Source: a virus
Virus genome (UHGV): UHGV-1460059
Length of the DNA: 41,456 nucleotides
Direction: 5' to 3' (one strand)
Shown: positions 29,524 to 41,237 of the stretch, piece after piece
Numbering within the stretch: position 1 is the first letter of the stretch
How the letters are laid out: each line of letters begins with the position of its first letter
The notes under the pieces: generated by a model
Told to the model about the DNA's origin: nothing
Databases searched by the model: none
What the model saw: the letters and a program-made list of their open reading frames with translations, nothing else
Position numbers and translations under genes: made by a program

Positions 29524-29597
29524 GTCCACCTCGCCTGATGTGGCTAAAAGCAGGCACATAACAGCTAAGTATTTTCAACCAGAGAGAATCCTTAGCG

Positions 29598-29876
29598 TTG
29601 TGGTGAATGCGGCTCAGCGCACGCGGGTTAAGGTTGAGGCTGACAGTCGACCTTCTGTGGATACCCACCCGCCTGGTGTGCAACCTTCGCCAGGCACCGG
29701 GAGGCACCCGGCACCACAACTTTATGCTGTGTGTAGTCCTGGCGGTACCAGCTTGTACCCTTGCTTCCGGCTGGTACCGTCCTTTTTACAAAACAGAGAA
29801 GAGCATCACCGGACGACGGGCTCATAACCCAATCCATCCGGGCGGCAGTCACCGCAGGTGTTCTTCTCTGTTTTGT
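29598..29876. other. GC-rich, ORF-poor, hairpin-dense non-coding element (candidate structured RNA or recombination/regulatory site)
   Basis: Perfect 15-bp inverted repeat 29788-29802 / 29862-29876; 9-10-bp IR 29744-29752 / 29770-29778; GCCTGG/CCAGGC 29671-29695; CCGGG/CCCGG 29697-29711; long-range TTGTGGTG/CACCACAA 29598-29605 / 29712-29719. All frames give Arg/Pro/Gly-rich non-protein-like ORFs. Confidence 0.4.
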
Positions 29877-31305: not shown

Positions 31306-31830
31306 ATGTCATTTATTAAAACTTTTTCCGGGAAACATTTTTATTATGACAGGATAAATAAAGACAACATCGATATTAACGATATCGCGGTTTCCCTTTC
31401 AAATATCTGTCGCTTTGCCGGCCATCTTTCACACTTCTACAGCGTCGCCCAACATGCGGTGCTTTGCAGCCAGCTGGTACCGCAGGAATTTGCTTTTGAA
31501 GCGTTAATGCATGATGCAACAGAAGCGTATTGCCAGGACATCCCGGCTCCACTGAAACGCCTTCTTCCTGACTATAAACGGATGGAAGAAAAAATAGACG
31601 CCGTAATCCGTGAGAAATACGGGTTACCCCCGGTTATGAGTACGCCCGTGAAATATGCCGATCTCATCATGCTGGCAACCGAACGCCGCGATCTCGGGCT
31701 TGATGATGGCTCTTTCTGGCCCGTACTGGAAGGTATCCCGGCAACAGAGATGTTCAAAGTTATTCCACTGTCGCCAGGCCATACCTATGGGATGTTTATG
31801 GAACGCTTTAAAGAGTTAACTGAGTCGTAA
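31306..31830 (+). CDS. yfdR: HD-domain phosphohydrolase, YfdR-like 5'-deoxynucleotidase
   Basis: HD motif (…EALMHDATEAY…) with upstream His (SVAQHAVL). ATG at 31306 has GGAGA upstream; the GTG at 31294 would give 178 aa. Confidence 0.65.
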   Translation: MSFIKTFSGKHFYYDRINKDNIDINDIAVSLSNICRFAGHLSHFYSVAQHAVLCSQLVPQEFAFEALMHDATEAYCQDIPAPLKRLLPDYKRMEEKIDAVIREKYGLPPVMSTPVKYADLIMLATERRDLGLDDGSFWPVLEGIPATEMFKVIPLSPGHTYGMFMERFKELTES

Positions 31831-31938
31831 AAATCAGCACGTACGAATTCAAACTCTGCCATAAAAGAACATATAAGTAATTTATTAACATATAGATATA
31901 GGTTATATTACAAATTGAAAAATTATTGGAGAGCAACA

Positions 31939-32805
31939 ATGAATCAAAATCCATTCTCATTCTATGACTTTCTTGGATATTTAATACCAGGTGGTTTTTT
32001 TATCCTATTAATGTATTTCTGTGGTTTGACATTCGATCTAGATATTGTTATTGACTTAAGTGAATTGCTCAGAGGTCAAAGTCAAATCTTTGGCATTTTG
32101 AACTACGCTTCAATAGTTATTATATCTTATATAGCTGGACATTTTATTTCTATCACGTCAGCATTTTTTATCGAAAAATACATGAATAAAGAATTAGGAT
32201 ATCCTTCCAAATATCTATTTAAAAAATTGATAGATACCTCAGAAAGCATTTGTAGCCCATCATGCGATGAGAGAAGCGCTGATAAAAAAACAAAAATAAA
32301 GAATCGCATAATCAAATGCGTATTATGCCCAATAATACTATGGGATTTTATAACACAAAAACTATGTTATTCTCAATCTCTACCATTTCATTTAGCTAAT
32401 ACAACATGGTTAATGATCAAAGAAGGTTATGAGAAAAAGTTCATAACAAATCGCCAATTATTACAAGATAAAAACGGACTTGATGATGATCTCTTCAGAT
32501 TGGCATATCATTATGTTTATGAGTTTTCAAAACAACATCAAACAAAAATTCAAAACTATGTTGCATTATATGGTTTTTGCAGAAACATATGTTTAATCTT
32601 TATAATTTCATTTTGGGTATCAGTTCCAACCTTTATTTATCGATTATGTACTCATAGTGATTATCTTTATAGTTTACTTTCAATAATGCTTAGCTTTTTC
32701 TTCGTCTATGTTTTCTATGTTGGTTTTGTTAAATTTTATAGAAGATATACTTTAGAAGTATTAATGGCATTTGCTGTACTTCAAAGTAACGACACTATTC
32801 GTTAA
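31939..32805 (+). CDS. Polytopic membrane protein, very AT-rich (accessory gene upstream of xis/int)
   Basis: ATG at 31939 with GGAGAG upstream. Several hydrophobic segments (LGYLIPGGFFILLMYFCGL; IFGILNYASIVIISYIAGHFISI; ICLIFIISFWVSVPTFIY; LLSIMLSFFFVYVFYVGFV). GC content is far below the flanking phage genes. Confidence 0.45.
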   Translation: MNQNPFSFYDFLGYLIPGGFFILLMYFCGLTFDLDIVIDLSELLRGQSQIFGILNYASIVIISYIAGHFISITSAFFIEKYMNKELGYPSKYLFKKLIDTSESICSPSCDERSADKKTKIKNRIIKCVLCPIILWDFITQKLCYSQSLPFHLANTTWLMIKEGYEKKFITNRQLLQDKNGLDDDLFRLAYHYVYEFSKQHQTKIQNYVALYGFCRNICLIFIISFWVSVPTFIYRLCTHSDYLYSLLSIMLSFFFVYVFYVGFVKFYRRYTLEVLMAFAVLQSNDTIR

Positions 32806-32846
32806 TAATGTTGCTCCCGTGTGCAGACGGGATAATGGAGAAACGT

Positions 32847-33053
32847 ATGCTGAACCTCGATTGTGTTCCTATCTCAACTTATTGCAAAGAAACTGGCGAA
32901 ACTCCTGAAGCAATAAACAAACGTGTACAGCGCGGTGTTTGGCGTGAAGGTGTTCAGGTTTTAAAGGTTGAAGGCGTTAAGGAGAGGTGGATTGATCTTA
33001 GTGAGGTTGCAAAATGGGCCAGACAAAACTGCTCAAACTACCGCGCGGCGTAA
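32847..33053 (+). CDS. Excisionase-like small DNA-binding protein
   Basis: 68-aa basic protein whose 3' end overlaps the int start by 40 nt. ATG at 32847 has GGAG upstream; the alternative start is 32835. Confidence 0.45.
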   Translation: MLNLDCVPISTYCKETGETPEAINKRVQRGVWREGVQVLKVEGVKERWIDLSEVAKWARQNCSNYRAA

Positions 33054-34186
33054 CAATCAGGAAACACCGCCAGGGAGAAACGATCAATATAACTTTCACC
33101 TACAAAGGAGTTAGATGTCGTGAGCCGCTTTCCAATCTGGAAGTAACACCAAAGAACATTAAATACGCCGAGCGTACACTCGGCGAAATCCATAATAAGA
33201 TCGAAAGGGGAACATTCATTTATGCAGAATATTTTCCCCGTTCTGCTCGTTTGAAAATTTTTGGTAATGCTGCTGCAGGCAAAACGGTAAAGATGTACCT
33301 GGACGAATATCTTGAAATCTGCGAAACAAGAAAACTTTCACCCTCTACGATTGGTGGCTATAAAAAATGCCGTAGTGCGTTAGCCTCACTTCACATTTGC
33401 CCTGCAAGTGAATTAACACCAGCAACCCTGAAAGCGTGGATTCAAAATCAGAAAACGACCTTAAAAACAATTCGCAACCAGTTATCTTTCCTGCGGTCAG
33501 CACTTGATGAAGCCGTGACCGATGGGGTACTTCAAATTAACCCCGTATCGTTAGTAACAGCTTCGCGCTACCAAAGTGATAAGTCAGAAGCAGAAAGCAG
33601 CTACGTAGTTGATCCGCTATCACCAGCAGAAGTTGATGCATTACTAGCAGCAGCCGGAAACAAACAATGGGAAAATCTGTTCCGGTTCGCTATACATACA
33701 GGCCTGCGTAGTTCTGAATTATGTGCCCTTCGATGGCGTGATATCGACTTTGTTGGAAAAACTGCCCATGTCCAGAGCGCAAGTGTTGTCGGTGTTATCA
33801 AAGGGACAAAGACAAAAGCAGGTACTCGGAAAGTTGAACTGACAGAAGAGGCAATGTTGGCGCTGATAAATCAGAAGCCATTTACATTCATGAAGGATAC
33901 TACTGTCTTTGAAGATCCAAAGACCAATAAGCCTTGGGCAAGTGCTGATGCAATCAGGAAAAAAGCATGGGTGCCAACATTGCGAAAAGCAGGTATTCGT
34001 TACAGAAATCCATATCAAACTAGGCATACATTCGCCACCCGCCATATCAGCCGGGGAGCAAACCTGTTTTGGCTTGCAGCTCAAATGGGGCATAAAGGGC
34101 CGGAAATGTTATTTCGTCATTATGGTTCATATTTAAAGGAATATGACGGTAATACGACCAGCAATATCACAAAAAAAGCCACTTAA
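33014..34186 (+). CDS. Tyrosine integrase (lambda-type, with arm-binding N-terminal domain)
   Basis: 390 aa; C-terminal catalytic signature including …HTFATRHISRGANLFWLAAQMGHKGPEMLFRHYGSYL… (R, HxxR, Y). Confidence 0.9.
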   Translation: MGQTKLLKLPRGVTIRKHRQGETINITFTYKGVRCREPLSNLEVTPKNIKYAERTLGEIHNKIERGTFIYAEYFPRSARLKIFGNAAAGKTVKMYLDEYLEICETRKLSPSTIGGYKKCRSALASLHICPASELTPATLKAWIQNQKTTLKTIRNQLSFLRSALDEAVTDGVLQINPVSLVTASRYQSDKSEAESSYVVDPLSPAEVDALLAAAGNKQWENLFRFAIHTGLRSSELCALRWRDIDFVGKTAHVQSASVVGVIKGTKTKAGTRKVELTEEAMLALINQKPFTFMKDTTVFEDPKTNKPWASADAIRKKAWVPTLRKAGIRYRNPYQTRHTFATRHISRGANLFWLAAQMGHKGPEMLFRHYGSYLKEYDGNTTSNITKKAT

Positions 34187-34199: not shown

Positions 34200-34583
34200 T
34201 TAGGAGGCTCTCGATTTAAGCATTTCCGTACACTTAGCAAAGAGCCTCTCAGTTGTTAGAATCGCAACTTCAGACTGTTTAGAAGTGACCGATTGATCAA
34301 GTCGATAGTCTGCAACAATCCTCTGAGCTTTAAGTTGACTCAGGATAAAACTAATCCCTTTTAGATATCTAGCTTCATATACTTCACTTCCTCTTGAAGC
34401 ATCGCCCTGCAAATAATTGATTAGCCCCTGATGACTGTCTTTCGGCCCGTTTACCATACAAGGCAAGACATGATGGTAAGCGCCATAGTAGGATCTTGCT
34501 ATAGCATTTCGATAGCCGATTTCGTCATTACGTTGATGACAGTCTTTTGCAAAACCGAGAAAATCTTGACTATTAACCGGCAT
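34200..34583 (-). CDS. Hypothetical protein with R-x6-H motif (HEPN-like candidate), distal gene of the int-att operon
   Basis: ATG at 34583 with GGAGGG 7 nt upstream; 127 aa; motif RSYYGAYHH; 11-nt overlap with the upstream gene. Confidence 0.4.
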   Translation of the reverse strand: MPVNSQDFLGFAKDCHQRNDEIGYRNAIARSYYGAYHHVLPCMVNGPKDSHQGLINYLQGDASRGSEVYEARYLKGISFILSQLKAQRIVADYRLDQSVTSKQSEVAILTTERLFAKCTEMLKSRAS

Positions 34584-35388
34584 GTGCAACCCTCCGGGTA
34601 ATCAGACCTAATTCGGAGATAGCATTCTGCTCAATATGTGTGTCTTTACATTCAAACCAAACAGCAAAATCTTTACCGACTAAACAATCGTGCTCAGCCA
34701 TTGAAAAAGCAAGCTCAATATTCATATCAGCGATTTGTTCAGCATCAGAAGACTTTGTCATGAATACAATCGCATTCACTTTCTCTTCCGAAATATTATA
34801 AAAACGCATTCCCGAAAGATGAACCTTCTGAGAATCCATGACATTGGCTACATTATTGAAAATAAGTTCATATTCTAAACCAGAAAGATCGGCACGTTGC
34901 TTAAAGGATTCGACCTGGGAAACAACTTCATCAAAATTGTTGTCCATTTTTTCAGGCTCCTTATCTCCGAACAATTTAGAGTATGACTGGAAATACTTCT
35001 CCGCCAACGCCATCTTCCCCATAAAGAGGGAGTTTTCATAAGCTTGAAGATAAATAAACGGGGATATGAAGCTTTCAGCAAGCTTAATGCTTGTTTCAAA
35101 GCTTTTCTTCAACGTACCGTAATCTGACAAGAAAACAAGAAAATTCTTTGCAACAACCTCATTATGGCATACCTGCAAGGAACGCTCAAAGAAGCCTATC
35201 GCCTCATTCACTTGGCCATGTGCACCATAGACCAACGCTAAAAGATAGTCCTCAGAGACAGGATCTCTAAGTGCTTCAATCTCACGTAACATCCTTCTAA
35301 AGCTAAAGTCATCAATCCTCACTCCATCTTTGAGGTATTTAGTTAGCCGCGCGCTAATAACTGATGCTTTTTTTGCTGGCTGCAACAT
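34573..35388 (-). CDS. Hypothetical protein (271 aa), AT-rich, first gene of the int-att operon
   Basis: Long ORF in AT-rich DNA; helical-repeat-like N-terminal half; no recognised catalytic motif. Confidence 0.45.
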   Translation of the reverse strand: MLQPAKKASVISARLTKYLKDGVRIDDFSFRRMLREIEALRDPVSEDYLLALVYGAHGQVNEAIGFFERSLQVCHNEVVAKNFLVFLSDYGTLKKSFETSIKLAESFISPFIYLQAYENSLFMGKMALAEKYFQSYSKLFGDKEPEKMDNNFDEVVSQVESFKQRADLSGLEYELIFNNVANVMDSQKVHLSGMRFYNISEEKVNAIVFMTKSSDAEQIADMNIELAFSMAEHDCLVGKDFAVWFECKDTHIEQNAISELGLITRRVAHAG

Positions 35389-35815
35389 TAAAAACCTTAT
35401 CTTACAAATAGTTGGTAATGATGTTGAATTATTTTTTGTTCTTTATGGCTAATAAGATTACATGAAGGGACAACTTCTGACCACCTTAGAAAACACTCAC
35501 TTTAGTAACAAGAGTCAATAATATTGTTGACAAATCACAAAAAAACAAACTTATCCAAAACAATCTGGTTTATCACAAAGCCTCTGTGCATAAATCTGTG
35601 CATAACATCATTTTTACACACATTTTTTTATAAAAATATTTTTTAGCAAAAAATGCTATCTATCTCCGAAACTGCAACCACAAACCATTAATTCCAAATG
35701 AAACTATTTTAAAATAAATAGTAAGACAGTAACAGGACAGAAAAAGTTCCGCAAAAGAGCCGCTTGTAAAATCAACAATATTTGGCTATTTAAATTCAAT
35801 GAATTACATAACTAT

Positions 35816-35847
35816 GGACACGGGTTCAACTCCCGCCAGCTCCACCA
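35816..35847 (+). other. ssrA (tmRNA) 3'-end-like fragment: attachment-site core / junction between two integrative elements
   Basis: GGACACGGGTTCAACTCCCGCCAGCTCCACCA matches the recalled E. coli tmRNA 3' terminus with one mismatch. Upstream sequence is AT-rich and unlike ssrA, so only the terminal ~32 nt are present. Confidence 0.6.
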
Positions 35848-36012
35848 CTTTTTAGTTGTTTGAAGTTCAATGAAGTCTACTAAGCCCACACAGCACAAGC
35901 TCTGCGGGCTTTTTTACGTCTATTGTCGTCCAGTGAGAATTGCTGAGAACTACGAGTTATGGCACCCTGAATGGGACCCACTAAGAAGGGTCCAAAAACC
36001 GAGGGTCCCAAA

Positions 36013-37242
36013 ATGGCAAAAATCGCTAAGAAGCTCACTGACACTGAAATCAAAAGCACCAAGCCAGCCGATAAAGAAATCAACTTGTTTGACGGTGATG
36101 GTCTGATTCTACGAATCGCTCCTTTGGCGAAAGGAGGCAAGAAAAATTGGTATTTCAGGTATGCAGTACCAGTGAGCAAGAAAAGAACCAAAATGAGCCT
36201 TGGGACATATCCTCACCTTACCCTTGCAAGAGCCAGAGCCTTACGTGATGAATATCTCTCCTTTCTGGCAAATGGTGTTGATCCCCAAATCCATAACAAC
36301 GATAAGGCGAAGGCATTAAAGAGTGCTACTGAGCACACTCTCCAAGCCGTAGCGCGGAAATGGTTAGATGAGAAGGTAAAGACATCAGGTATCTCACAAG
36401 ACCATGCAGCAGACATCTGGCGCAGCTTAGAGAGAAATGTCTTTCCCGGTCTGGGTAATGTCCCTATCAATGAGATCCGACCTAAGCTCTTAAAACAACA
36501 CCTTGATCCTATTGAGCAACGAGGCGTATTGGAAACTCTACGCCGTATCATTTCACGTCTGAATGAAATCTTCCGGTGGGCAGCTACTGAAGAACTTATT
36601 GAGTTCAACCCGGCTGACAACCTTGGTCAAAGATTCAGTAAACCAAAAAAGCAAAATATGCCTGCCCTTCCCCCAAGCGAATTGCCAAGGTTTATGGAAT
36701 CTTTGACGAATGCGTCAATCCGGTTGGAAACACGTATGCTAATTGAATGGCAATTGTTGACATGGGTTCGTCCGGGTGAAGCCGTTCGCGCAAGGTGGTC
36801 TGATATTGATACAACCAACAGCATTTGGAACATTCCTGCTGATTTCATGAAAATGAAAAAGCTTCACAAAGTTCCTTTGAGTAAAGAAGCTTTGCGCATC
36901 CTTGAATTAATGAAATCAATAAGTGGGCATAGAGAATGGGTTTTCCCCAGCATAAAAGCGCCTCTTAATCATATGCATGAACAAACAGCCAACGCAGCTA
37001 TCATCCGAATGGGGTTCGGAGGCGAGCTTGTAGCTCACGGTATGCGTTCTATTGCACGAACAGCGGCAGAGGAGTCTGGTAAATTCAGAGCTGAAGTTCT
37101 TGAGGCAGCGCTTGCCCACTCGAAAAAAGATGAAATTATCGCAGCATACAATCGTGCAGAATATCTGATAGAGCGACAGAGTTTGATGCAATGGTGGAGT
37201 GATTACGTTCAAGCTCAAAGATCAAATGCTCTGGTAGCCTAA
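36013..37242 (+). CDS. P4-type tyrosine integrase (IntA-like)
   Basis: ATG at 36013 with GAGGG upstream. N-terminus MAKIAKKLTDTEIKSTKPADKEINLFDGDGLILRI… is typical of P4-family integrases; lies ~165 bp downstream of the ssrA-like fragment. Confidence 0.85.
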   Translation: MAKIAKKLTDTEIKSTKPADKEINLFDGDGLILRIAPLAKGGKKNWYFRYAVPVSKKRTKMSLGTYPHLTLARARALRDEYLSFLANGVDPQIHNNDKAKALKSATEHTLQAVARKWLDEKVKTSGISQDHAADIWRSLERNVFPGLGNVPINEIRPKLLKQHLDPIEQRGVLETLRRIISRLNEIFRWAATEELIEFNPADNLGQRFSKPKKQNMPALPPSELPRFMESLTNASIRLETRMLIEWQLLTWVRPGEAVRARWSDIDTTNSIWNIPADFMKMKKLHKVPLSKEALRILELMKSISGHREWVFPSIKAPLNHMHEQTANAAIIRMGFGGELVAHGMRSIARTAAEESGKFRAEVLEAALAHSKKDEIIAAYNRAEYLIERQSLMQWWSDYVQAQRSNALVA

Positions 37243-37280
37243 GTATCAGAATAGCTAATATAATCCTGAAGGTAAAGAAA

Positions 37281-37697
37281 ATGGAAACCCTATTCAAAGT
37301 TTTTGAAAAATTTAGTTCCAGACCACTTTTTTTTATTTTTTTCGGACTCTCACTTTGTGAATTTTTTCAGAAACAATCTGTTCTGATGAATCCATCAGCA
37401 GATAACATCGCGAAATTATTCGCAGCCATGATATTAGTTGTTTTTTTTACTTGGGGATTTGAATGGCTAATCTTCAAGTTCAATGTAAACCTTGAACCTC
37501 ATGATCAAGGCGATATTGGACCAACAATTGGAACGGCTACTTTAGCTGTATACTTAGTTTATGCCTTTCACTTTCTCAGTGAAAATCCTGAAGCATTAAA
37601 TTTAAAGTTATTAACTAACTCTGGCTTTATATACAGCACAACTCTATTATTATTCTCATTAGAATGCATGAAGCTTAGAAGACTTAAACAAAAATAA
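37281..37697 (+). CDS. Small membrane protein (138 aa), AT-rich island cargo
   Basis: Hydrophobic segments (PLFFIFFGLSLCEFF; LFAAMILVVFFTWGFEWLIF; TIGTATLAVYLVYAFHFL; FIYSTTLLLFSL). Confidence 0.4.
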   Translation: METLFKVFEKFSSRPLFFIFFGLSLCEFFQKQSVLMNPSADNIAKLFAAMILVVFFTWGFEWLIFKFNVNLEPHDQGDIGPTIGTATLAVYLVYAFHFLSENPEALNLKLLTNSGFIYSTTLLLFSLECMKLRRLKQK

Positions 37698-37728
37698 ACA
37701 ACATCATTGTGATGATAAATATAAAATA

Positions 37729-37755
37729 GGCATGGCGAAAAAAAATCACCACGCC
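37729..37755. terminator. Imperfect hairpin between convergent genes (candidate terminator)
   Basis: ggcatggcga-aaaaaaa-tcaccacgcc (8 of 10 pairs); U-rich on the minus strand after the stem. Confidence 0.35.
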
Positions 37756-37768
37756 TAAAATATAATAA

Positions 37769-39517
37769 TTATGGTAGCATCATTGATACATAATCCACAC
37801 CAATCCTTGAGCTATACTGAGACGCTATAGCCTGATATCTTTCTGCATAACCAGTTCTCAGTTGAGATTTAAGTTTGAGTCGGACAGGAACATTTTGCAC
37901 GTTGCCATCCATATTACTTAAAAACACGGCAGAAATAATATTTTTTTCTTCGCCATCAACTGTTGTTCCATGATTCAACACCACCATATAATCAACAACA
38001 GGAAGCGTTTTATCCCCTTCGAAAATAGAGAGATATTTTCTTTGATTTTTATGCATTACATATATATATTTCGAATGTTCAGCAAATGGCAATGCTTTAC
38101 TCTGACTGGCGTTAAAAAGCTCCAGAACTTTAATGAGCCTGTGCGGACTTAATCTTACATGGTGAGGGTCGTTACCCTGAGTAGGAACCAAATCACATGC
38201 CGCAGATACACATAAATACCATTTGTTCGACTCTGTATCAAAGAAAATAGTGCCAGTAGAAATATGACCATCTTCAAAATTCTTTGAAGACAAATTCATA
38301 TTTAAAGCATGATACATTTCGTGATAAGTATCATTATTTGATGGCAGATCCATTTTTGAAGAGCAATATTGGAGCAATGCAGCAACTCCGCTGTTAGCGT
38401 ATTCATTTGAATAGCTATCAAAAACACTTTTGATAAATTCATCCAGCGTATTATTATTTTTAAGTCTTTGATAAAGCTCTTCTGATAAATTACCAAATAC
38501 AAAGTCAATATTTCTACATCTAATATCAGGCGAGTCTGATTTTAATATCTCATTTAACCACGCAGCTTGACCGTAATGATCGTTAGCAAAATGATTTACA
38601 AAAGATAAAGCCTCAGCTTCGATTGCATTCTGAATTTCAGATTTTATTAACTGATAATAAGATGGTTTCCATTCAATGAGAGAATCATTGAGAGTTTGCC
38701 AAATCCTATCTCCATCGTTTTCATGATCATCTTGAACCTTATGAAATAGGGAGACAAAGATATTACCACATTGAATCCATTTTACTCCGCTTTCATCACC
38801 CCGAATGACATTGCCAGATGTGTTGCTAGAAATAATTGCATTTCTAGACACAGCATATTCTGCAATCATTTTTGCAATGAAGTTTTTATCCTTTTGATCC
38901 TCCAACACAGCATCATCATGTATTAATCTTTTAATTCTTCTACAAGGCTTACTGTCTTTAATATAGGCTATTGTTTCATCTCTTGTGAGAGCTTTATTAC
39001 CATTATCATTTAAGTTCGGTAATACAACGTCTTCCCAATAACTTTGGACATCTTCATTATCGTAGTCAATGATCAAGCTGTTGATATCCAGAGCACCTTT
39101 GAGAGTCGATGATATCTGCATCCAAACCGTTTCTAAATTCTCTCTAGTATATATTACAATCATATTTAAATGATCGGAGTCTTTCAAATCTTGTAATAGT
39201 TTAAGTGTTTTATCAGGTGCATTATTATCAAGATGATAATCTACAATAATAAGATCTGATTTTCTAATCCGATCCACATCGAAATTAACAGAACCATTGT
39301 CAACATCACAAATCATATTTTTAGATTGAAAAAAGCTCTCAAGAGTAGCGGCTCGTTTAGATGAGTCAATTTTGTTGTAGTCTAAATCAACTTCGTTATT
39401 CAACGCCCTGATTGATTCAGAATACGTCAGAAAATCGTCATCAATCATGACAACGGAACGAATTGCATTTTCGCAGAAAGTTTTCTGGACAAGAGAATTA
39501 TAATTTGCCACTGTCAT
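37769..39517 (-). CDS. Receiver (REC)-domain protein with ~450-aa uncharacterised C-terminal domain
   Basis: N-terminal REC-like signature: VVMIDDDF (acidic pocket), LIIVDYHL (phospho-acceptor Asp), NMIVIYT (Thr). Start preferred at ATG 39517, 1 nt after the upstream stop; ATG 39535 is the alternative. Very AT-rich. Confidence 0.5.
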   Translation of the reverse strand: MTVANYNSLVQKTFCENAIRSVVMIDDDFLTYSESIRALNNEVDLDYNKIDSSKRAATLESFFQSKNMICDVDNGSVNFDVDRIRKSDLIIVDYHLDNNAPDKTLKLLQDLKDSDHLNMIVIYTRENLETVWMQISSTLKGALDINSLIIDYDNEDVQSYWEDVVLPNLNDNGNKALTRDETIAYIKDSKPCRRIKRLIHDDAVLEDQKDKNFIAKMIAEYAVSRNAIISSNTSGNVIRGDESGVKWIQCGNIFVSLFHKVQDDHENDGDRIWQTLNDSLIEWKPSYYQLIKSEIQNAIEAEALSFVNHFANDHYGQAAWLNEILKSDSPDIRCRNIDFVFGNLSEELYQRLKNNNTLDEFIKSVFDSYSNEYANSGVAALLQYCSSKMDLPSNNDTYHEMYHALNMNLSSKNFEDGHISTGTIFFDTESNKWYLCVSAACDLVPTQGNDPHHVRLSPHRLIKVLELFNASQSKALPFAEHSKYIYVMHKNQRKYLSIFEGDKTLPVVDYMVVLNHGTTVDGEEKNIISAVFLSNMDGNVQNVPVRLKLKSQLRTGYAERYQAIASQYSSRIGVDYVSMMLP

Positions 39518-39518
39518 A

Positions 39519-41237
39519 TTAGAACTCCACTTCATTGAACTGGATCACAAAATTAGCGCCATCTTTTATTAAATAGTTATCGCCTTCATCAGGTTCTGAA
39601 TACCATATTTTATGATGTGCAACAGCAAGGTTTTCTCGACATAGATACAGACCTACCCCATGTCCATTTGCTCTTTTGCTATAAAATAGTTCAAATAGTC
39701 GCGGGATATCATCGGTATCAATTGCCGGACCAGAATTTGCTATGATAACCAAAGAATTCACAAAACCAATCTTTATGAGCCTATTATTTGACAGACTGAC
39801 CCAATACATTGCATTGTTGATAATATTAGTAAAAACAGGATAGATCCTTGATGGTATATCTGTTATTGCGATTTGCTTAAACTCTTCACTAAATTCAATA
39901 GTTATTCGTTGCCGTTCGAAACGCTCCCCAAAGAACTTCAGGACATAATCCATGATATTTTTTCCAGTTATTCTCTGCCTGGATTGATAACCTGATATTT
40001 TCAAAGGTGATAAGAAACGTATTTGTTGAGTAAGCGATCTGTGAGCATTTAACGCCAATGAAAAACCAGGGTGTTCTTTTACAGAAGTAGGAAGAGAGTT
40101 TAGTCCTCTGGTTACCATAGAATCCATTTCTTCAAGTTCATGAGATATTATCTCAACACTAATACCTAACTGTGCAAGCGCGTTTAAACTTTTAGCTTTT
40201 TCTTCAAAATATGAGCGTTCTTCTTCAGATAATGAGAATGCTGAATCTAAGTTTATACCTTCAAATAATCTATCGAGACCTTTTATTATTGATTGATATT
40301 TGAAAGTTAGGGTATCAACTGACTCAACATATAAACTATCGAGCAAATTAAACACATTTTCAATTTGTGAATCATTATCTATTGAATCAACAACTGATAT
40401 AGTTTTAGCATAATAATCACTTCGATCAACCTTTATTTCATCGGCCCATTTTTTTAAAAGAGAATGTATCTTCTCCTCTATCGTGTTATTAAACTTAGTT
40501 AGTTTAGAATTAATAATACCTTGATTTTTTTCAAGGTGATTTTTCGCTGACAATGAAGGCTCAAGTTTATTTAATTCAGAATCAAGTTTATTAATTGCTA
40601 ACTTCATTTGTAGAATATACGCAGAGAACTCATTAAATTTATCTCTGTAGTCTCTATATTTCTCTTCATACATTCCAAGTTTTGGAGGTTTGATAGGCGT
40701 TTTAATTTCACTGCGCAACGCATCTAAGTTTGTAAGATCACTGTCTATAATTTTAAGATAGTTTAAATCTAACGAACCATCAGTTTTATCAAGCTTAGTT
40801 TTCAGCCTTTTAACAGCCTCCAAGGAAGCATCAAGAACTGGTGTCTGATTCTTCAAAGCTTCTGAAAAACTTTTTTGTGTTGATTTTCGAGCTTGTTGTT
40901 GAGCAGATTTTCTTAACTCTTTTTCACGCTTAACTTGTTCTAAAAGCTCTTTACGGTCATCAGAACGTGAACCAAAAAATCTATCAGCAAGTTCAGTTAA
41001 CAAATTAGATATAATAGTTTTCAGTTCTCTTGCAGCCTGGTTTCTTATGAATCCCTCTCTCCCCGACTTATCTTTCAGCTCTTTATTACTGGATTGAGTA
41101 ATTCCAATATAACCAAAAATCCTTCTATTAGACCAATAATATCGCCCTGCATTCCATGAACGTCTTTCTTCTATCTGGAAGAAATCATTATCTACTCGAC
41201 CATAAGGTAATACTCTCAAGCTATCCCTAAAAATCAT
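39519..41237 (-). CDS. Soluble histidine-kinase-like protein (coiled-coil N-terminal region + HisKA/HATPase-like C-terminus), apparently 5'-truncated
   Basis: H-box-like ISHELEEM, N-box NIINNAMYW, G1 NSGPAID, G2 GHGVGLYLC; no TM segments. The reading frame stays open upstream of the first ATG to 41363 inside the IS end, with no start codon. Confidence 0.5.
   Translation of the reverse strand: MIFRDSLRVLPYGRVDNDFFQIEERRSWNAGRYYWSNRRIFGYIGITQSSNKELKDKSGREGFIRNQAARELKTIISNLLTELADRFFGSRSDDRKELLEQVKREKELRKSAQQQARKSTQKSFSEALKNQTPVLDASLEAVKRLKTKLDKTDGSLDLNYLKIIDSDLTNLDALRSEIKTPIKPPKLGMYEEKYRDYRDKFNEFSAYILQMKLAINKLDSELNKLEPSLSAKNHLEKNQGIINSKLTKFNNTIEEKIHSLLKKWADEIKVDRSDYYAKTISVVDSIDNDSQIENVFNLLDSLYVESVDTLTFKYQSIIKGLDRLFEGINLDSAFSLSEEERSYFEEKAKSLNALAQLGISVEIISHELEEMDSMVTRGLNSLPTSVKEHPGFSLALNAHRSLTQQIRFLSPLKISGYQSRQRITGKNIMDYVLKFFGERFERQRITIEFSEEFKQIAITDIPSRIYPVFTNIINNAMYWVSLSNNRLIKIGFVNSLVIIANSGPAIDTDDIPRLFELFYSKRANGHGVGLYLCRENLAVAHHKIWYSEPDEGDNYLIKDGANFVIQFNEVEF

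Follow-up and report, generated by a model that had tools for sequence, protein, structure and literature searches.

Csx27 is an accessory protein of type VI-B1 CRISPR-Cas13b systems that was named in 2017 and has a single, puzzling phenotype, the repression of Cas13b in a foreign host. In E. coli it represses Cas13b interference up to 10^5-fold rather than enhancing it (Smargon et al.), and its mechanism is still treated as unknown in the literature. Csx28, the accessory protein of type VI-B2 systems, is a membrane pore that is activated after Cas13b and depolarises the inner membrane. In P2-like phages, the cos-proximal locus between genes Q and A, where old and tin reside, has been experimentally validated as a hotspot for anti-phage systems, and Table S5B of the study that described it lists 'DUF4760' as system #3, the third commonest cassette with 1,102 occurrences (Rousset et al. 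2022, PMC9122126). Here we have analysed a gene of UHGV virus genome UHGV-1460059, a stretch of 41,456 nucleotides (nt) referred to below as the window. The gene lies at 31939-32805 and encodes a protein of 288 amino acids (aa) with four transmembrane (TM) helices, for which a first-pass annotation made from the sequence alone had recognised no family. That claim proved wrong: the protein belongs to PHROG 12528, is homologous to protein 2 of P2-hotspot cassette #3 and is a remote homolog of Csx27.

Relationship to Csx27

Our comparisons have shown that the window protein matches the PADLOC Csx27 model (PDLC01605) over nearly its full length (E=1.4e-5) and the NCBIfam model CAS_Csx27 (NF040557) with 14.9 bits (E=0.02), where the curated cutoff is 65. 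Among 141 members of its family, 101 match the PADLOC model (best 2.2e-10) and 25 the NCBIfam model (best 2e-6), and no other family recurs. The comparison was also made from the CRISPR side. Type VI-B loci were drawn from metagenomes by a degenerate direct-repeat pattern, and a hidden Markov model (HMM) of the family picked six of their 1,057 open reading frames (ORFs), at E values between 7e-10 and 0.01. Each of the six proved to be genuine Csx27, with 113-209 bits, and several are encoded right next to genuine Cas13b. When these six sequences were in turn made into a Csx27 HMM, it matched 97/141 family members, including the window protein (E=6.5e-7). The same HMM matched 0/282 reversed or shuffled decoys and 0/1,050 non-family ORFs, 85 of them multi-TM, which rules out an artefact of TM composition as the cause of the match. 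In hhalign, the family and bona fide Csx27 could be aligned along 198 columns that include all four TM helices, with a probability of 95.8% (E=7e-9). Based on these sequence profiles, we firmly regard the protein as a full-length remote homolog of Csx27 and a stand-alone member of the Csx27 superfamily. Since its score falls below the equivalog cutoff, Cas13b is absent and the architecture is expanded, we classify it as a member of the superfamily and not as Csx27 itself. Neither Cas13b nor a CRISPR array was found in the window, whose largest ORF has 611 aa, and no Cas13b-sized neighbour occurs at 80 genome loci of the branch.

The window protein and Csx27 share the same architecture of two plus two TM helices with a cytoplasmic insert, together with motifs that are recognisable by eye: FSxYDF...PG before TM1, YPS after TM2, D-x-LF-x-x-AY-x-Y-x-E...K-x-x-Q-x-x-Y-x-F-x-RN leading into TM3, and YR after TM4. 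In Csx27 the N-terminal motif, the strongest of those held in common, reads K-F-S-L-Y-D-F-x-S-F-x-L-P-G. The two differ in length (206-229 aa in Csx27, 288 aa here) and in the distance from the N-terminal to the pre-TM3 motif (134 versus 205), which amounts to about 70 extra residues in the cytoplasmic domain. Whereas Csx27 is an accessory of type VI-B1 CRISPR-Cas13b, the window protein is stand-alone and phage-borne, and the sole reported activity of Csx27, Cas13b repression, cannot apply in E. coli.

The gene and the parts of its product are as follows.

31939..32805, + strand: coding sequence of the 288-aa four-TM protein including the stop codon (ATG 31939, TAA 32805; PHROG 12528; RefSeq WP_001075212)
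31928-31933, + strand: ribosome-binding site GGAGAG, 5 nt 5' of the start
31948..31992, + strand: N-terminal signature N4-P-F-S-x-Y-D-F-L-G-Y-L-I-P-G18, at the cytoplasmic entry of TM1
31966..32166, + strand: first TM hairpin (TM1 aa 10-31, acidic periplasmic loop aa 32-51, TM2 aa 52-76)
32167..32556, + strand: all-helical cytoplasmic central domain, aa 77-206
32557..32730, + strand: second TM hairpin (TM3 aa 207-232, short periplasmic loop, TM4 aa 243-264)
32731..32802, + strand: basic cytoplasmic C-terminal tail with conserved K265-F-Y-R-R-x-x-L-E273-x-x-M276

The same frame is present in RefSeq as a 'hypothetical protein' (WP_001075212). Its start codon is fixed by the homologs, all of which begin M-(N/S/T)-Q-N-P-F-S. 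The first-pass annotation had claimed at least four hydrophobic helices; hydropathy, a structure model and a family-wide charge analysis agree on exactly four, arranged as two hairpins (aa ~10-31 and 52-76; ~207-232 and 243-264) with a ~130-aa domain between them. Charge counts across the 141 members, read by the positive-inside rule, place the N-terminus, a ~127-aa central region (net charge +5.6) and the C-terminal tail (+2.1) in the cytoplasm, and the two short, acidic loops in the periplasm. This topology puts all conserved motifs on the cytoplasmic side of the membrane, and the periplasmic half is variable. Across the members, which share 25-79% identity, the invariant or near-invariant positions are N4-G18, Y64, G67, H68, S74, E79, Y88-P-S90, P131, H191, H200, K203, N206-G212, R215, F263, K265, R268, E273 and M276. 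Y64, G67, H68 and S74 are located where TM2 meets the cytoplasm, and TM3 opens with Y-V-A-L-Y-G-F-x-R215. The central domain carries E79, Y88-P-S90, P131 and the motif D184-x-x-R-x-x-Y-H191-Y-x-x-E195-x-x-x-x-H200-x-x-K203-x-x-N206, while its residues 100-115 are variable and of low confidence.

An AlphaFold2 model computed on the 141-sequence alignment is all-helical, with a mean predicted local distance difference test (pLDDT) of 90.4 and a predicted template modelling score (pTM) of 0.89. It supersedes a run on a shallow alignment of 11 sequences (pLDDT 69.7). In this model, TM2, TM3 and TM4 extend into a cytoplasmic helical bundle. Foldseek searches of BFVD and PDB returned nothing below E=0.8, so that no solved or viral structure with the same fold was found, and a sequence-profile search of PDB gave chance matches only. 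The order of hairpin, cytoplasmic domain, hairpin and cytoplasmic tail recalls the MotA/PomA/ExbB stators, to which ZorA of Zorya is related, and these were among the weak Foldseek matches. The matches are insignificant (probability <=0.28, TM-score <=0.27, E>1), sequence similarity and a MotB-like partner are lacking, and we do not claim kinship.

The protein falls in phrog_12528, whose function is unknown, and has no Pfam match even at E<=10. No homology to a phage structural or lysis protein emerged from these searches, and the lysis cassette of the prophage lies elsewhere, away from the gene. In a profile search of 1.84 billion cluster representatives (50% identity clusters), 953 relatives passed a threshold of E<=1e-3 and 205 one of E<=1e-30; almost all of them are 260-310 aa long and align end to end. 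A scan of one genome per species found 119 relatives in Gamma-, Beta- and Deltaproteobacteria, many Bacteroidota, Bacillota, Chloroflexota, Acidobacteriota and Gemmatimonadota. Family members are present in 492 of 5,426 complete E. coli genomes (~9%), ST131 strains included, and are always annotated intact; about 181 carriers have the window allele and 284 a P2-type allele. The gene is rare on plasmids. No literature was found on WP_001075212 or on Csx27-like proteins, and none of relevance on DUF4760. The protein, hitherto left without a family, is thus firmly classified in a stand-alone branch of the Csx27 superfamily. Our analysis shows that Csx27 has a much larger stand-alone sister family in temperate-phage accessory slots of E. 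coli, Salmonella, Klebsiella, Enterobacter and Serratia, and an obscure Bacteroidota CRISPR protein thus becomes approachable by ordinary E. coli phage genetics.

Accessory slots in temperate phages

The gene is flanked by yfdR and xis/int in a lambdoid prophage of E. coli, which agrees with the earlier description of an insertion between the early-left genes and xis/int. The elements of this slot are as follows.

31306..31830, + strand: yfdR (HD-domain 5'-deoxynucleotidase), upstream neighbour and last gene of the conserved cI-yfdP-yfdQ-yfdR module; 108-base-pair (bp) gap to the gene
31831..31938, + strand: AT-rich 108-bp spacer from the yfdR stop codon to the gene, carrying the GGAGAG ribosome-binding site
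32815..32832, + strand: stem-loop TCCCGT-GTGCAG-ACGGGA, between the stop codon of the gene and the xis ribosome-binding site
32837-32840, + strand: xis ribosome-binding site GGAG
32847-33053, + strand: xis-like gene, downstream
33014-34186, + strand: tyrosine integrase gene (int), downstream

In fifty related phages with the cI-yfdP-yfdQ-yfdR module, homology ends at the yfdR stop codon. Their cargo between yfdR and xis/int consists of EaE, Ea22-like genes or a YafO/YafM toxin-antitoxin pair, and the slot is therefore genuinely variable. The gene has a GC content of 0.285, against 0.488 for the whole window, and the drop is limited to 31800-32800. Its GC content at third codon positions is only 0.218, so the AT-richness is not merely an effect of hydrophobic amino-acid composition. 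The gene is also intact: all 205 full-length E. coli copies are uninterrupted, and the ratio of non-synonymous to synonymous change (dN/dS) between alleles is 0.19-0.24, with non-synonymous change peaking in the central variable region and also in loop 3 and TM4. The spacer and the first ~50 codons are nucleotide-identical to those of an allele with 78% identity (31831-32090 versus L208:5893-6150), while the remainder of the gene is ~82% identical, and this indicates a recombination breakpoint inside the gene. These results support the view that the gene is accessory cargo with foreign composition in a variable slot of a temperate phage, encoding a polytopic inner-membrane protein. To this extent the 'moron position' of the first-pass annotation stands. 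The strict sense of the term, which implies a promoter and a terminator private to the gene, is not supported, as consensus scans found neither. Only three promoter-like sites occur in 2.1 kb, where 8.0 are expected, and none is placed to drive the gene. The spacer holds no consensus promoter; its TATATT at 31904-31909 is paired with no more than a weak -35 element. Since the gene also lies co-oriented and tightly spaced in the string yfdP-yfdQ-yfdR-gene-xis-int, it may be transcribed together with the early-left operon.

The stem-loop at the junction with xis shows compensatory stem changes and an invariant TGCAG loop in 4/4 enterobacterial lambdoid alleles (those of Klebsiella and Enterobacter and the 78% E. 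coli allele included). It was not found at 80 distant loci of the family and thus belongs to the gene-xis junction rather than to the protein family. Comparable hairpins occur in 0.25% of random 70-nt windows, and thermodynamic support is modest (z=-1.6). This element may be a regulatory element for xis/int.

Other temperate phages carry the family in similar positions. An integrase lies within three genes downstream at 48 of 76 viral loci in IMG/VR, the commonest phage position for the family, and 9 of the 76 fall in the P2 hotspot. The 78% E. coli allele, a 50% Enterobacter allele and a 52% Klebsiella allele are each followed directly by xis/int, in different backbones, and the slot is used by three distinct enterobacterial prophage backbones. 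In a lambdoid prophage of Serratia, a relative occupies the nin region, with the replication genes on one side and Q on the other. As a separate observation, a prophage remnant that carries the 78% allele near zur-dinF-lexA has, downstream, an antitoxin-like gene with a SocA/Panacea domain and a small partner, a module of conflict type (L208:7450-8438).

In P2-like phages, a full-length homolog with 43% identity and all family motifs is encoded between portal gene Q and replication gene A. It is identical (L002:5001-5840) to protein 2, labelled '4 TM', of system #3 in Table S5B. At 9/9 P2-like loci a DUF4760 protein with one TM helix is encoded 39 bp upstream of the family gene (L002:4464-4961, L273-L279). 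DUF4760, which has no PADLOC match, adjoins the family gene nowhere outside P2-like loci. The two settings are alike in that protein 2 is homologous to the window protein and both are accessory cargo of temperate E. coli phages. They differ in that the P2 cassette includes DUF4760 and occupies the gpQ-gpA slot, whereas the window protein lacks DUF4760 and occupies the yfdR-xis/int slot of a lambdoid phage.

Chromosomal relatives and candidate functions

The family was also studied at non-enteric loci from 80 species, where 147 flanking genes carry 141 different Pfam families. A conserved partner gene was considered and rejected, because the best neighbour cluster occurs at only 9/80 loci. In 79/80 species the gene is more AT-rich than its flanks (for example, 0.35 versus 0.62 GC in Pseudomonas). 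Recurrent neighbours are tyrosine recombinases, Dcm, HsdM, HsdS, MADS, thioredoxin-like genes and glycosyltransferases. In a Pseudomonas/Stutzerimonas clade (L221:3528-8882; L056, L057, L079, L080), the gene, with GC 0.35-0.41 between flanks of 0.62, lies directly 3' of nrdA-nrdB, which suggests a recurrent insertion point downstream of these genes. Membership in capsule loci was also considered and has been downgraded: it is limited to one clade, and in the annotated example the gene is at the locus edge. At this example, the only capsule-associated locus with Pfam labels, a 1-nt gap separates the gene from genes for a 635-aa patatin phospholipase and an AEP-like protein. Two unrelated contigs (L218:9001-12567 and L216:208-3699) carry such a trio, in which the family member is accompanied by a patatin-like phospholipase of ~640 aa and an AEP-like protein of ~227 aa; identity is 35-44% and the gene order differs. 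The trio is a candidate multi-gene conflict system of that sub-branch; as it is rare (2 loci), it is not used as a rule for the family.

The first-pass annotation had proposed superinfection exclusion, abortive infection or lysogenic conversion. The data are compatible with these ideas, including the homolog in the P2 defence hotspot, and the proposal continues to rest on inference. Our favoured reading, to which we give a probability of roughly 45%, is a defensive role in which the protein excludes phages by acting at the membrane. We favour exclusion because of the abundance of the family in the P2 hotspot, its partnerless horizontal mobility, its neighbours (restriction-modification islands, integrases, patatin) and the membership of the whole superfamily in immune loci. 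The ubiquitin-like and WYL partners described for further Csx27 relatives count today as hallmarks of defence systems. The protein would be a self-contained inner-membrane effector in phage-phage conflict, anchored by two TM hairpins, with both termini and a helical domain of ~130 aa facing the cytoplasm. The conserved, cytoplasm-facing site next to the membrane would sense a cue associated with infection, and the extra length of the cytoplasmic domain may give the protein the sensing function for which Csx27 relies on Cas13b. The four-helix bundle, probably oligomeric, would respond by adopting a form in which the inner membrane is de-energised or permeabilised, as in abortive infection. This membrane-disrupting form of defence is a tentative suggestion, and an alternative form, in which the protein blocks the passage of incoming phage DNA, is less likely still and in our estimate improbable. 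In either case the lysogen would exclude competing phages.

Several known systems offer partial models for such an effector. Csx28 resembles the protein only by functional analogy, as a small membrane protein tied to an immune system that could serve as a model for a Csx27-like effector. It has no sequence or fold kinship, consists of one TM helix and a HEPN-like domain, forms an octamer, and enhances Cas13b defence whereas Csx27 represses it. Lambda RexB, SieB, T4 Imm and HK97 gp15 are likewise prophage inner-membrane proteins in accessory positions, and RexB, with four TM helices, is an abortive-infection channel. None of them shows similarity in Pfam or PADLOC, and their distribution is narrow, whereas the present family spans many phyla and has invariant cytoplasmic motifs. 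We also consider it possible, if doubtful, that the family is a CRISPR-independent single-gene anti-phage system, an effector that detects infection with its enlarged cytoplasmic domain and shuts the membrane down, and that Csx27 is a trimmed copy of it which Cas13b has recruited, in the way that Csx28 was recruited in VI-B2. If so, the view of Csx27 as a mere repressor would be overturned, with an E. coli model at hand in the ~9% of strains that carry the family. If exclusion is the true function, the family would add a new class of membrane effector to prophage immunity and explain a common P2-hotspot cassette.

A number of observations weigh against exclusion, and the question of expression is its main weakness. 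The scans detected no promoter or terminator private to the gene, and the gene is part of a delayed-early operon both in the window (early-left) and in Serratia (nin region); such operons are normally repressed in a lysogen. In PADLOC v2.0.0 only Csx27 (1.4e-5) and tm_4 (1.3e-3) match the protein; six family members match PDC-M48A weakly. Among chromosomal neighbours, recognisable defence genes are only a minority, a tyrosine recombinase lies within 8 kb at only 11/80 non-enteric loci, so that the association with prophages is weak, and one gut-Bacteroidales clade, far from that of the window, lies beside capsule loci. The conserved positions cluster at the cytoplasmic interface rather than along the TM helices, a pattern that would suit a site for binding or catalysis no less than a pore. 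The Csx27 precedent, without an agreed mechanism, is also one of repression, not enhancement, of Cas13b interference. Finally, the family motifs are absent from Table S2 (tested systems) of PMC9122126, where the cassette is catalogued only.

The same position in the operon raises the prospect of an accessory function at the membrane during the lytic cycle, under delayed-early transcription and to the benefit of the phage itself. This could be counter-defence (for instance, weakening a membrane or abortive-infection effector of the host, much as Csx27 does with Cas13b), a part in taking over the host, or exclusion while the phage grows lytically. Besides the string of co-oriented, tightly spaced genes without a consensus promoter or terminator and the Serratia copy between replication genes and Q, the gap to the upstream gene is just 39 bp in the Enterobacter and Klebsiella prophages, the slot-mates EaE and Ea22 are classic early-left accessory genes, and the strong repression by Csx27 in E. 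coli would fit counter-defence. We nevertheless regard this role as unlikely, though it is the strongest of the alternatives to defence. The P2 cassette has a ~700-bp non-coding region upstream, at the site of the lysogen-expressed old and tin; the gene is chromosomal in 69/80 species with no integrase within 8 kb, which is hard to square with a function limited to the lytic cycle; and E. coli has no Cas13b to counteract. The position beside xis/int can also be read another way, since O-antigen-modifying conversion genes (as in the Shigella and Salmonella gtr and oac phages) typically adjoin xis/int. The protein could be an enzyme or transporter embedded in the membrane that works at the cytoplasmic leaflet, on a lipid-linked sugar or a phospholipid, and alters the surface receptor of the lysogen. 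The invariant polar residues Y14, Y64, H68, S74, E79, H191, H200, K203, N206, R215, K265 and E273 cluster at the cytoplasmic interface in a manner resembling an active site, and about 8/80 loci, mostly of gut Bacteroidales, lie in or beside long operons rich in glycosyltransferases. That context is essentially one clade, remote from that of the window, and where Pfam labels exist the gene is at the capsule edge, in an operon with the patatin and AEP-like genes. Moreover, Pfam, NCBIfam and PDB show no similarity to Gtr, Oac, Wzx, Wzy or lipid-modifying families, and in contrast to conversion genes such as GtrABC, Oac and Wzy the protein has only four TM helices and a large cytoplasmic domain. 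The periplasmic loops are short and unconserved, and the Csx27 branch has no link to polysaccharides. Taken together, these points make an envelope function improbable. If either a lytic-cycle or an envelope role applied, it would provide a first functional handle on the Csx27 superfamily.

A further proposal comes from the literature on the superfamily. According to papers that cite Makarova et al. 2019, the Csx27 family is said to be an 'expansive family of 4-TM proteins' predicted to be single-stranded DNA (ssDNA) channels, and its operon partners are reportedly natural-transformation components, ubiquitin-system fusions and WYL-HTH regulators. On this basis, and given that the homology between the window protein and Csx27 is solid, the protein could be a nucleic-acid conduit or a regulator of DNA uptake, serving the traffic of the phage's own DNA or interfering with incoming DNA. 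We consider this very unlikely, the least probable of the roles discussed. The partners that the citing papers list (competence genes, ubiquitin-system fusions and WYL-HTH) are missing from the Pfam families that recur in the 147 flanking genes, the ssDNA channel is a prediction only, and E. coli is not naturally competent under ordinary conditions. Membrane-acting exclusion by a Csx27-like effector thus continues to be the reading we prefer.

Other features of the window

The neighbouring genes within the window have no PADLOC match. Directly after int, at the prophage edge, two overlapping, co-oriented and unannotated genes of 129 and 271 aa lie on the minus strand (34200-35388). The pair has no Pfam or PADLOC match, is present in strain EC21Z-147 between int and glaH, and is candidate cargo. 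Further along, the 3' end of a transfer-messenger RNA (tmRNA) is present as a fragment (35800-35847, E=2.4e-5) and, with an IsrM-like stretch (35838-35915), precedes a P4-type integrase gene (35971-37242). This is followed at 37281-41237 by a gene for 138 aa and two large minus-strand genes (588 and 572 aa), none with a PADLOC match. The arrangement of 35800-41237 suggests a second island, inserted in tandem at ssrA. On the other side of the gene, upstream of yfdP, a GC-rich patch (0.56; 29567-29790, + strand) has long overlapping ORFs on both strands. It matches the small RNA (sRNA) family STnc100 with 42.4 bits, against a gathering score of 47 (E=1.2e-6), and from this similarity it is probably a prophage sRNA and not coding sequence.

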